From positions 135,284,001 to 135,348,000 of the forward strand of contig OZ024742.1 in NCBI GenBank assembly GCA_964016885.1: a DNA stretch of 64,000 bases, read 5' to 3'. Under the pieces are notes generated by a model that had not been told where the DNA came from, did not search any database, and was given only the letters and a program-made list of their open reading frames with translations. Made by a program: the position numbers and the translations under genes. Source of the stretch: Eledone cirrhosa. Lineage: Eukaryota. This document shows, one piece after another, positions 27,788 to 41,827 of the stretch (position 1 is the first letter of the stretch; the number at the start of each line of letters is the position of its first letter).

Positions 27788-28171
27788 GATGGTAGAGATA
27801 GAAAATGCGAAAAAAGGATGATGCAGCAAATGAGAAGATTGGAAGTGGTGGTGGGGGAGAAAATAATTAGGGTTTCAGAAGAAGAAGAAGAGGAATATAC
27901 CAATCAACAGAACTACAATCATGATTACAATGAGAATTAAAAAAATATAATATTTATATATAAGTATGTATACGTACATACATATATGTATACATATGTA
28001 CAGTAGTATGTATATATATATACATACATGCACACATATATATATATATGTACGTATGGATTCACCGAACATTTATTATAGTGCTCGGTGTGTTTGTAAA
28101 CAAACATCCCGAATTAAGCCGTACAGTGTCTAGCAACCATCGTTGCTCATTTGTTCAACACTGACAAAATA

Positions 28172-28214
28172 ACGCTGTACTAGTTTCAAGCTTATTAGCT
28201 ATCCTCAGCAACGT
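28172..28214 (-). ncRNA. Type I minimal hammerhead ribozyme (element A, copy 1)
   Basis: Minus strand: acgttg-CUGAGGA-u-agcu-aaua-agcu-u-GAAA-cuag-UA^cagcgu. Stem I is 6 bp (one GU), stem II is 4 bp, stem III is the palindrome ACUAGU, and the cleavage triplet is GUA. Confidence 0.88.
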
Positions 28215-28588
28215 ATACCTTCCTGCCAGATTGTTGAACGTATATACTTTCCTTATGCATATTAAAGGCTGAGCAGCCTAATTTGCATATCGAGTGAGTT
28301 AATCGGCCGGAGTACCGAAAACGATAAACGGAAAAAAAGAAACGAAATTTCATTTCTCACACTTAGTACGGCTGTTACTTAAATATAAGTAGGTATACAT
28401 ACATATATGTATACAGACGTACAGTAGTATGTATATATATATACGTACATGCACACATATATATATGTACGTATGGATTTACCGAACATTTATTATAATG
28501 CTCGATGTGTTTGTAAACAAACATCCCGAATTAAGCCGTACAGTGTCTAGCAACCATCGTTGCTCATATGTTCCACACTGACAAAGAA

Positions 28589-28631
28589 ACGATGTACTAG
28601 TTTCAAGCTTATTAGCTATCGTCAGCAACGT
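28589..28631 (-). ncRNA. Type I minimal hammerhead ribozyme (element A, copy 2)
   Basis: acgttg-CUGACGA-uagcuaauaagcuu-GAAA-cuag-UA^caucgu. The only core change versus copy 1 is at the free N7 position; one stem I mismatch. Confidence 0.85.
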
Positions 28632-28777
28632 ATACCTTCCTGCCAGATTATTGAATTCTGTATATACTTTCCTTATGCATATTAACAGTATATACTTTCC
28701 TTATGCATATCAACAGCCGTTAATATGCATAAGGAAAGTATATACTTTCAGAGTTCAATCATCTGGCAGGAAGGTAT

Positions 28778-28819
28778 ACGTGATAACGATAGCTAATAAG
28801 CTTGAAACTAGTACAGCGT
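28778..28819 (+). ncRNA. Degenerate hammerhead (element A, inverted copy)
   Basis: acgtg-ATAACGA-tagctaataagctt-GAAA-ctag-TA-cagcgt. The CUGA box is mutated, so it is predicted inactive. Confidence 0.6.
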
Positions 28820-29585
28820 TCCTTTGTCAGTGTTGAACAAATGAGCAACGATGGTTGCTAGACACTGTACGGCTTAATTCGGGATGTTTGTTTAGAAACA
28901 CACCGAGCATTATAATAAATGTTCGGTGAATCCATACATACATATATATATATATATATGTGCATGTATGTATATATATATACATACTACTGTACGTCTG
29001 TATACATATATGTATGTATACCTACTTATATTTAAGTAACAGCCGTACTAAGTGTGAGAAATGATGTTTCGTTTCATTTTTTCCGTTTATAATATTTATA
29101 GTAAAATGATAAAAAAAATAAACATATCTAAAACAAAAAGGGAGCCACAAAGAATTTTATATGGAATCGATAATGCTATGTTTTGGGGGGTTTTTTCTCT
29201 CTAAGGAGGAAAAAATGCATTCAATAATCTCTCTACTAAAATCTCATTCTTATTCCTCTCAGAAAATCAAATTATCATTTTTCTAAAGAGTATGCTTGTG
29301 TATGTCCAAAGTTTATCTCACGGCCAGATCCAAACCGCAATTGGCCTGAGTGTGATTTCTACAAAATGTATGAATTGCATCGAATTTAGACAATATTTTT
29401 AATTTTATAGAGTTAAACTCCTTCTCTTTCTCTCTCTCTCTCTCTCTCCCTATATATATATATATAAATGAAGTAATTCCGTCGGAAAGGTCCAGGAAAA
29501 AAGAGTGCTCTATGTGGGTTACAGAGCTTATTAGTTATGTAATAAACAACATAAGATAATTGAATACCCCTTCCACTTTTTTGTC

Positions 29586-30087
<502 letters not shown>

Positions 30088-30354
30088 AATATTATTCAAA
30101 ATATAAAAAAATGAAAAATATACTCATAATCAAAATATATATTTTATTATACATATTTCAAAGGTACTTAAGTACGTTTGTTTTTAATTACGTTTTCATG
30201 AGACAAAATATATGATTTGATATGTGACATACCGCTACGGTTTTGATTATTCAATTCCAGTATTGCCAATACTGTACCTTTGAAATATATATAATAAAAA
30301 TATATATTTTGATTATGAGAATATTCTTCATTTGTTTACATTTTGAGTAATATT
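30088..30354. repeat. Fold-back element: ~80-bp inverted arms, ~105-bp spacer
   Basis: aatattattcaaaat...atttcaaaggtac (30088-30168) pairs with gtacctttgaaat...ttttgagtaatatt (30273-30354). Confidence 0.9.
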
Positions 30355-30445
30355 AAAAACTCCAGGAAAAATCTCTTGTTGCGTGCTTCTAATATATTGT
30401 AATATTGTTTTCGTTGAGTAATTAACGAACCATACTAATCATTGG

Positions 30446-30663
<218 letters not shown>

Positions 30664-30927
30664 ATATCAAGATAAATTAACGGAGCCATAGACTCTTGTT
30701 CTTCCCTGTAAATTATGTGCTCAACGGAAAAGGAATCCTGAGCTCTTTAAATACAATATGTAGAAAGGTTATCACACTAGAGAGAGATAGAGAGAGAGAG
30801 AGTCTGTCATCAATAAAACAAGGAAACCACCAGTGTATGGAATCTATAACCTATGGAAAGCAGGGTAGACACTCAATAATTAAAATATATATTAAAATGC
30901 GCATATCCACCTCTATATCAATATAAC

Positions 30928-31010
30928 ACAAACGTACAAATCCAAAGAGATCTGTTTCGCCAAGACATTATTGACTGAAATAGAAGCGCCTATGGTTCAT
31001 CAGCGTGTGT
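30928..31010 (-). ncRNA. Type I hammerhead ribozyme with extended stems II and III (element B, copy 1)
   Basis: acacacg-CUGAUGA-acca(u)aggcg...ugucuuggc-GAAA-cagaucu-cuuu-ggauuug-UA^cguuugu. Stem III is fully paired (with GU pairs), stem I is 6/7, and the triplet is GUA. Confidence 0.88.
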
Positions 31011-31472
31011 AAGACAAATAGATTCCAGACACATCTAAGTAAATATAAGATAACCGTCCCTGCAACACGGGCAGAGAGATGTGACAGCGTGCATAGGACA
31101 GTGAACCAGTGGTATCTGAGGGACGAGCTGCTATAAATGGCTGCCCAAAAACCACTCAGAGAGATGTGCTCAACCAAACAGAGCGAGAGGAAAGACTGTT
31201 ATCAGGAGCGAAATATCAAGATAAATTAACGGAGCCATAGAATCTCGTTATTCCCTGTAAATTATGTGCTCAAAGGAAAAGGAATCCTGCGCTCTTTAAA
31301 ATACAAAATGTAGAAAGGGAAACGCACTAGAGAGAGAGAGAGATAGCGTGCCATCAATAAAACAAGGAAACCACCAGTGTATGGAATCTATAACCTATCG
31401 ATGGCAGGATAGACACTCAATAATTAAAAATATATATTAAAATGCGCATACGCACCTCTATAACTATATAAC

Positions 31473-31555
31473 ACACACGTACACATCCAAAGAGATCTGT
31501 TTCGCCAAGAAATTATTGACTGAAATGGAAGCGCCTATGGTTCATCAGCGTGTGT
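31473..31555 (-). ncRNA. Type I hammerhead ribozyme (element B, copy 2)
   Basis: acacacg-CUGAUGA-accauagg...uucuuggc-GAAA-cagaucucuuuggaugug-UA^cgugugu. Perfect 7-bp stem I and one stem III mismatch. Confidence 0.88.
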
Positions 31556-31820
31556 AAGACAAATGCATTCCAGACAACTCTAATAACATATAAGATAACC
31601 ATCCTGCAACACGACGCGGCAGAGAAAGGCAGCCCAAACCACTCAGGCTTTCCTCTCTCTCTGTTTGGTTGAGCACCTCTCTCTGAGTGGTTTTGGGCTG
31701 CCATTTCTAGCAGCTCGTCCCTCAGATACCACTGGTTCACTGTCCTATGCACACTGTCACATCTCTCTGTCGCGTGTTGCAGGACGGTTATCTTATATTT
31801 TATTGGAATGCATTTGTCTT

Positions 31821-31903
31821 ACACACGCTGCTGAAACATAGGCGCTTCCATTTCAGTCAATAATTTCTTGGGGAAACAGATCTCTTTGGATTTGTACGTG
31901 TGA
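31821..31903 (+). ncRNA. Degenerate hammerhead (element B, inverted copy)
   Basis: acacacg-CTGCTGA-aacatagg...ttggg-GAAA-cagatctctttggatttg-TA-cgtgtg. Core A6 is mutated to C and the base of stem II is disrupted. Confidence 0.65.
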
Positions 31904-32104
31904 GTTATATAGTTATAGGTGCGTATGCGCATTTTAATTTATATTTTTAATTATTGAGTGTCTACCCTGCCATCGATAGGTTATAGATTCCATACATTGG
32001 TGGTTTCCTTGTTTTATTGATGGCACACGATCTCTGTCTATAGTGTGTTACCCTTTCTACATATTGTATTTTATATATATATATATTTTTTTTTTTCAGG
32101 TCTA

Positions 32105-32138
<34 letters not shown>

Positions 32139-32142
<4 letters not shown>

Positions 32143-32582
32143 CCTGAACAAATGCGCAAGCTCAAAAGAGCTACAGAATGTTATAATAAACCTTCAAAAG
32201 TGTGGGACTAGAGTTGTTGGTAAAAAATATTCTAATCATTATCTATCGTACACTCTCTGGCATCCTTTTATAAAAAAGAAACTCCATAACGAACTCAAGA
32301 CGACACGATAATTATTTAAGCTAATGTTCAATATCTCATATTAGATGTTTAGTAATGATTAATACGAAATGCACTGAAACCGAATTCTATATTATAAATT
32401 CACTTAAATATTTATCGTGTCGTCTTGAGTTCGTTATGTGTCTCTTTTTTATAAAAGGGTGCCACAGAGTGTACGATAGATAATGATTACACTATTTTTG
32501 AGCAACAACTCTAGTCCCACACTTTTGAAGGTTTATTATAACATTCTGTGGCTCTTTTGAGTGTGCACCTTTTTCAGGTCTA
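32139..32582. repeat. Fold-back element: ~180-bp inverted arms, ~80-bp spacer
   Basis: tagacctgaa...cgacacgataattatttaag (32139-32320) pairs with cttaaatatttatcgtgtcg...ttcaggtcta (32403-32582). It adjoins a (TA)n tract. Confidence 0.93.
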
Positions 32583-40957: not shown

Positions 40958-41827
40958 AAATACGAAAATTATAAAAATTAACTTACTAAAATTTCACTCC
41001 AACTAATTAGATTCTGAAAGGAAATAAACATGGTTTCCGAGGGAACACATGGAGAAAGTCTTTCGTCATCAGGGAAGTATATTCTCAGCTAAGTTCCCCG
41101 GCAATGCGTGGACACGGGGAACTTATACAAAAATAATTCAGTGGATGGAAAAAAGCAAAGCGTGGACTAAGTTCCAAGACATTGAAAAATTCACTGCCTA
41201 CTTGGTCGGTGGCAAATTCAAAAGAATCAATCACGTGACATCGAGGTTAATCAGTGGGGAGTGGGGTGTTAAGAAGACAGCAGCCGAACCATTACTATGA
41301 ACTATAGTAGCAGTTTTGGCAAATTTTTTCTCAACAAAATAATTTGGCGATAATTATGAAGAATTAGTATATCTACCAACATATATATATACAGATGCAT
41401 ACCTATGCTAGCAAATATATAGGTTTTGTCTTAGTAACATTGTGGTTCAATGCAAGGGGATGCAGAACAATTATATGAAAGACGTAAAATAAGAAAATTA
41501 TAAAAATTAACTTATTACTAGAATTTCACTCCAACTAATTAGTTTCTGAAAGGGAATAAACATGGTTTCCGAGGGAACACATGGAGAAAGTCTTTCGTCA
41601 TCAGGGAAGTATATTCTCAGCTAAGTTCCCCGGCAATGCGTGGACACAGGGAACTTATACAAAAATAATTCAGTGGATGGAAAAAAGCAAAGCGTGGACT
41701 AAGTTCCAAGACATTGAAAAAATCACTGCCTACCTGGTCGGTGGCAAATTCAAAAGAATCAATCACGTGACATCGAGGTTAATCAGTGAGGAGTGGGATG
41801 TTAAGAAGACAGCAGCCGATGTCACGT
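40955..41827 (-). mobile_element. Element C: ~333-bp direct repeats around a ~200-bp spacer, with a stem-II-less hammerhead-like motif, between (TA)n and (CA)n
   Basis: Repeats at 40955-41287 and 41484-41819. Each has minus-strand uucc-CUGAUGA-C-GAAA-g...c-UC^ggaa. An 11-bp terminal inversion at 41817-41827 is the reverse complement of 41765-41775. Confidence 0.7.

Follow-up and report, generated by a model that had tools for sequence, protein, structure and literature searches.

Two hammerhead types bear directly on the locus described here. The canonical metazoan motif has a helix I of 6 bp, a helix II of 4 bp and a helix III of 1-2 bp with a palindromic loop, and is active as a dimer; the minimal hammerhead of Penelope-like elements (PLEs), in turn, has a helix I of 4-5 bp, a helix II of 7-8 bp, an additional base after position 9 and a helix III that is absent or 2 nt long (PMC4209133, in excerpt). 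Retrozyme circles have been reported in coral, mussel and axolotl; in the last of these, motifs bearing a palindromic tetraloop or a helix II base of U-U reached 6-22% cleavage as monomers and far more as dimers (excerpts of PMC7229834). Among retrozyme dimers from Xenopus, one of nine cleaved in vitro (bioRxiv 10.64898/2026.07.22.740005, in excerpt). Mobilisation of retrozymes is still presented as a hypothesis in the parts of PMC7229834 and bioRxiv 10.64898/2026.07.22.740005 at hand. Penelope insertions, for their part, are marked by an inverted 5'-truncated copy and a one-sided tail, and endonuclease-positive PLEs target microsatellites (PMC8557442 and PMC3846280, both in excerpt); the origin of the tandem and inverted Penelope structures is termed undefined in the available part of PMC8557442.

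The hammerhead pair and its type

We analyzed a window of 64,000 nt from Eledone cirrhosa (contig OZ024742.1, positions 135,284,001 to 135,348,000). Two type I hammerhead cores were found on its minus strand, starting at 28625 and 28208, with GUA triplets ending at 28595 and 28178. The resulting predicted cuts, 28595/28594 and 28178/28177, lie 417 nt apart and reproduce the coordinates of the original prediction, which had been made from the letters of the sequence. It had also described two minus-strand cores that differ at N7 alone, and this held as well: from C3 to the cut, the sole difference between the window copies is N7 (C versus G). The pattern CUGANGA-N10..20-GAAACUAGUH matched twice in the window versus 0 times in 100 shuffles. 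Each motif runs through a 6-bp helix I, CUGANGA, U, a 4-bp helix II capped by a 4-nt loop, U, GAAA, CUAG, UA and the cut, with a helix III made of an A-U pair and the palindromic loop CUAG. Past a small internal loop, helix I is prolonged as a long stem. Both direct copies carry helix I lesions immediately outside the core. In hammerhead 1 (28560-28660, minus strand; core 28625-28619), a U-U mismatch in helix I represents a minority type with 210 exact matches in the genome; in hammerhead 2 with its extended helix I (28143-28243, minus strand; core 28208-28202), two changes in the 3' arm disrupt G-C pairs next to loop 1.

Rfam hammerhead models gave no match in the window at the gathering score and none in 27900-32200 at E<=10; the only Rfam hits in the window were sub-threshold microRNA models on AT repeats. 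Pfam searches of 14 window frames returned nothing but a low-complexity Atrophin-1 match below the cut-off. The longest open frame in a trimer of the unit spans 130 aa, and the element is non-coding and has no LTR.

The motifs had initially been labeled minimal PLE hammerheads. Their identity as hammerheads stood, but the minimal PLE label did not, as the helix lengths fit the canonical metazoan type (excerpts of PMC4209133). Like the minimal hammerheads of PLE pseudo-LTRs, the window motif is predicted to act as a dimer via palindromic positions 15.2-16.2; unlike them, it has a 6-bp helix I, a 4-bp helix II, no additional base and a 4-nt palindromic loop, and the helix dimensions of the minimal PLE type were not found in it. 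Given a 6-bp helix I, a short helix II and a helix III of 1-2 bp closed by a palindromic loop, we assign the motif to the canonical metazoan type and the unit to the non-LTR retrozymes. With animal non-LTR retrozymes, as portrayed in excerpts of PMC7229834 and bioRxiv 10.64898/2026.07.22.740005, it shares a non-coding tandem unit of low G+C content with one canonical type I hammerhead per unit, an organization ranging from dimers to long arrays, a self-paired monomer and the presence of PLEs in the same genome. The motif combines the palindromic-tetraloop helix III of HHR_Amex1 with the U-U helix II base of HHR_Amex2, both from axolotl. It differs from these retrozymes in belonging to another sequence family and in having units of 396-469 nt, at the long end of the range. 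By its sequence features, the element is a new family of animal non-LTR retrozymes, a known class, and the window copy is an ordinary, decayed member. A literature search on cephalopods returned no hammerhead report, and the supplements of PMC7229834 and PMC4209133 may list related invertebrate families. The hammerhead pair itself is unremarkable within a class already described, and its value lies in the test system it opens.

Anatomy of the insertion and of two large families

A 13-bp repeat flanks the element as a target-site duplication (left copy 27946-27958, right copy 29088-29100, plus strand), with two matches in the window against 0.02 expected. As it encloses both arms and occurs nowhere else in the window, we regard everything between its copies as one insertion of ~1.13 kb. 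The direct arm (27959-28685, minus strand) consists of a 5'-truncated unit that contributes 91 nt ahead of cut 1, followed by a single full monomer and ~220 nt reaching the family's short fixed end. The cut-to-cut monomer (28178-28594, minus strand; 417 nt) has 35.7% G+C and strong predicted self-pairing, with folding z values of -6.8 when linear, -7.7 when circular and -4.5 when the AT-rich repeat is left out. A head-to-head junction (28686-28713), formed by a short duplicated piece of the monomer in a local fold-back palindrome, leads into the inverted 5'-truncated arm (28714-29087, plus strand), which ends at the family's long fixed end. This arm holds a third hammerhead on the plus strand (core position 28783-28789), absent from the original prediction, in which C3 and G5 are changed and helix I lacks one base. 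Beyond their own last cuts, the direct arm extends for ~220 nt and the inverted arm for ~277 nt; a one-sided tail (29039-29087, plus strand) is element sequence present on the end of the inverted arm and missing from that of the direct arm. The window's three arms have no rare allele in common and differ at 11-12 of ~180 sites.

With its head-to-head 5'-truncated inverted copy, one-sided tail and target duplication, the window insertion bears the signs of PLE-mediated mobilization. Judged against excerpts of PMC8557442 and PMC3846280, it resembles the insertions of endonuclease-positive PLEs in its 5' truncation, partial tandems, head-to-head inverted copy, tail, target duplication and microsatellite targets. 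It differs from them in that the retrozyme has no reverse transcriptase or endonuclease open reading frame (ORF), and its tail measures ~50-70 nt versus 30-40 nt in PLEs. The retrozyme accounts in PMC7229834 and bioRxiv 10.64898/2026.07.22.740005, in the parts available, contain no inverted arms, tails or two fixed ends; a literature search by title likewise found nothing on inverted or rolling-circle retrozyme footprints, which is weak evidence of absence.

The 33-nt core pattern had 10,110 exact matches in the 2,995,841,428-base genome, and a control had none. Contigs of unspecified kind from three sequencing runs of a single sample echoed the family. For closer inspection, we assembled 63 non-overlapping loci, namely the 30 nearest to copy 1 (window included), the first 30 on contig C1, picked by a non-core anchor, and 8 of a subfamily, minus 5 overlaps. 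Tandem hammerheads occurred in 15 of these loci and both orientations in 22. The tandem units are spaced 396-437 nt apart, confirming at the family level the monomer-length repeat that had been proposed for the window. Type I hammerheads with intact cores in consecutive tandem units characterize a dispersed family that ranges from dimers to multimers, including an array of >30 units on contig C1. Across the 63 loci, a 5' end can lie at any point of the unit. The 3' ends are concentrated in two places, reference positions ~217-231 and ~276-279, and mostly run into (TA)n.

A sister family, ~65% alike and with units of 466-470 nt, contributed 9,203 exact pattern matches, although a DNA similarity search with the sister hammerhead had given no match. 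At L128-L151 (C1:5.738-5.752 Mb), 31 sister units form an array with one inverted head unit; they have locus-wide variants in common and show local duplication patterns.

Head-to-head insertions follow a simple rule. In 25 of the 28 loci that could be scored, the arms terminated at different fixed ends (the other 35 of the 63 had no scorable pair); of the three same-end loci, L017 is a miscall at the locus edge, L040 a mis-pairing and L021 real. In the same line, 10 of 10 head-to-head insertions of the sister family, picked for opposite-strand neighbors and not by their ends, had different fixed ends. These ends are homologous between the families and flank a predicted hairpin. Since insertions cross the cut site and end within the unit, their template must have been a circle or an uncleaved multimer. 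One very young sister insertion (L149/L150, C1:30.83-30.84 Mb) comprises 7 and 13 hammerheads head to head with (TA)n on both sides, and all 18 full 468-nt monomers in the two arms are identical. Such identity is as predicted for, and appears to fit, rolling-circle copying of a circle; as other sister loci lie within 1-2 of 225 nt of that monomer, a linear multimer of uniform sequence or smoothing in the assembly could equally give it. Rare alleles were held in common by 4 of 22 tandem pairs and 3 of 23 inverted pairs, compared with 36 of 3,871 pairs between loci; most within-locus pairs, including that of the window, have none in common.

Comparison of the copies indicated that helices I and II covary, whereas the core and the CUAG palindrome are constant. 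Position 3 of helix I is U-G, A-U or G-U among subfamilies, and a 5'-arm A at this position is paired with a 3'-arm U in 2,156 of 2,264 matches. In the sister family, helices I and II are altered on both sides and helix II is closed by G-C, with core and palindrome kept. Among eight picked copies, 7 of 17 pairs showed changes on both sides, versus 0-2 in slid controls; the covarying pairs reflect few independent subfamily events, not thousands. The original prediction had made conservation of the core in paralogous copies a point on which it could fail, and the core proved to be conserved genome-wide and in the sister family. Within copies retrieved by the non-core anchor, core positions decayed as positions elsewhere did (9 of 430 versus ~50 of 2,430 cells, counted by hand), as is expected for dead copies. 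The hammerhead appears to have been selected between subfamilies and not after insertion.

Probable mobilization by Penelope-like elements and competing readings

We consider the window element, with a probability of roughly 80%, a decayed insertion of an abundant non-LTR retrozyme that spreads by self-cleavage as a dimer, ligation to a circle and recopying by a Penelope-like reverse transcriptase and endonuclease. In this scheme, retrozyme RNA with a unit of ~430 nt and a type I hammerhead would cleave itself as a dimer of two hammerheads, and a host ligase, by analogy with known retrozymes, would close the monomer into a circle. A Penelope-like reverse transcriptase and endonuclease, to which the footprints point, would then copy the RNA into the genome from two fixed internal start sites, which lie ~220 and ~279 nt beyond the cut and serve one DNA end each; reverse transcription would cross the cut-ligation junction and could circle many times. 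The case for Penelope-like copying comes from the (TA)n targets, the 5' truncation, the head-to-head inverted arm and the two fixed ends, one per arm. More tentatively, and with slightly less than even odds, the families may record how Penelope integration proceeds: two reverse transcription events would start at two fixed sites on circular RNA, roll around it up to tens of times and be joined head to head, the arms possibly deriving from different RNAs, even from a retrozyme and a Penelope element. If true, this would explain the inverted copy and the one-sided tail of Penelope and would supply sequence evidence for retrozymes moving as circles. Two large families are available here, with fixed alternative ends, multi-unit insertions of very recent origin and near-identical hammerheads distinguished by their helix II base (U-U versus G-C), so that retrozyme mobilization and the origin of Penelope structures can both be addressed by counting within a single genome and by tests in vitro.

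Potential donors of the enzyme are common. GIY-YIG matches are abundant in the genome (150 scored of 10,597 candidates), and long frames bear reverse transcriptase and GIY-YIG domains. Comparing the monomer with 30 and a further 13 GIY-YIG loci revealed no common sequence except inserted copies. Likewise, searches with 13 ORF queries over up to ~1 kb found a same-sense PLE ORF at 0 of 44 sampled 5' junctions, and the three junctions with ORF matches all had them in opposite sense. Zero of 44 same-sense junctions and 0 of 43 GIY-YIG loci with unit sequence together argue against the units being mere stumps of PLE terminal repeats. That the unit is the pseudo-LTR of an autonomous PLE, and its copies truncated remnants, is suggested by the inverted-plus-tail anatomy, which matches PLE insertions, and by the resemblance of Xenopus retrozymes to pLTRs (bioRxiv 10.64898/2026.07.22.740005, in excerpt). 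Besides the junctions, however, arrays of 20 to >30 units without an ORF and the different hammerheads borne by the PLEs we saw make this explanation improbable.

A weightier challenge to the circular intermediate is that uncleaved or partly cleaved multimers transcribed from genomic arrays move, with a minor role for the hammerhead and no circle. Insertions crossing the cut site, the mosaic arms in the window, and the slow cleavage predicted from the U-U helix II base and weak helix III (compare PMC7229834, in excerpt) would all suit it; yet core, palindrome and helices have been retained between families ~65% alike, and insertions end at fixed internal sites, not at transcript ends, so that we hold it to be unlikely. 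That a hammerhead arose by chance in a DNA-level satellite or a MITE-like repeat might be imagined from the long arrays and from inverted arms that resemble terminal inverted repeats, but random 5' truncation with fixed 3' ends, covariation of the hammerhead helices and the motif's absence from all 100 shuffles effectively refute it.

At L012:539-2287, a retrozyme arm is fused head to head with a GIY-YIG Penelope-like element at the latter's 3' end, and (TA)n lies at both outer ends; this GIY-YIG element has its own hammerhead and shows two ends separated by 73 nt. Each arm terminates at its long end or close to it, contrary to the one-short-one-long rule. The fusion hints at co-insertion, with later deletion as the alternative. 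Other head-to-head partners were inspected at L010, L027 (another hammerhead repeat), L036 and L123 (the end of a PLE ORF), and these adjacencies may be due to chance in a repeat-rich genome. Separately, at L164:7952-8900 a PLE 3' end is directly followed by sister-family sequence starting from about its long fixed end. We also noted a near-intact Penelope-like family with a 938-aa frame (L092, L093, L096, L100 and L102), which has a hammerhead-like motif with a U3-A8 core variant and a CCGG palindrome.

Dimer folding and the fate of the window copy

In constrained folding of 11 tandem pairs, the dimer fold beat two monomer folds every time, by 7.5-14.2 kcal/mol; as the folding model omits tertiary contacts and Mg2+, only the comparison counts. 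The predicted dimer fold is nested, with 5' arm 1 pairing with 3' arm 2, the palindromes with each other (6 bp) and 3' arm 1 with 5' arm 2. In isolated hammerheads, energy alone does not yield the active fold. Cleavage as a dimer, which had been thought probable from the outset, accordingly looks probable for the family from the modeled folds and from the likeness to axolotl motifs (excerpts of PMC7229834).

The window locus itself is another matter. A 417-nt monomer or circle had been expected from it, which would require that the locus is transcribed and that its two hammerheads free the monomer. Both cores are intact, the dimer fold leads two monomer folds by 7.5 kcal/mol and the monomer is predicted to be well folded. 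On the other hand, the dimer fold costs 11.8 kcal/mol relative to the free ensemble, the second worst of the 11 pairs, helix I is damaged in both copies, just 91 nt of element lie upstream of cut 1, and core positions have decayed no more slowly than others in the copies retrieved by the non-core anchor. Read-through RNA of the insertion is moreover predicted to form one long hairpin, in which the inverted arm pairs with hammerhead 1 and with ~270 nt at the start of the monomer. With a decayed copy and hammerhead 1 within this predicted hairpin, a circle from this locus is doubtful, and we judge it improbable; the window copy most likely represents a dead product and does not give rise to circles.

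Further repeats were observed in the same window. Type I hammerhead-like motifs form another tandem pair, unrelated to the first (30950-31560, minus strand; cores 545 nt apart, at 31548 and 31003). Its helices II and III are long, and it has an inverted arm reaching ~32040; it is probably another retrozyme family and could cleave as a monomer. At 41604 and 41072 (minus strand), each unit of a 532-nt direct repeat carries CUGAUGA followed downstream by GAAA, with no convincing helix I or III. Finally, a satellite array adjoins the element at positions 1-25545; its repeat is 52 bp long and G/T-rich, and the array covers at least 25 kb and is strongly strand-skewed.
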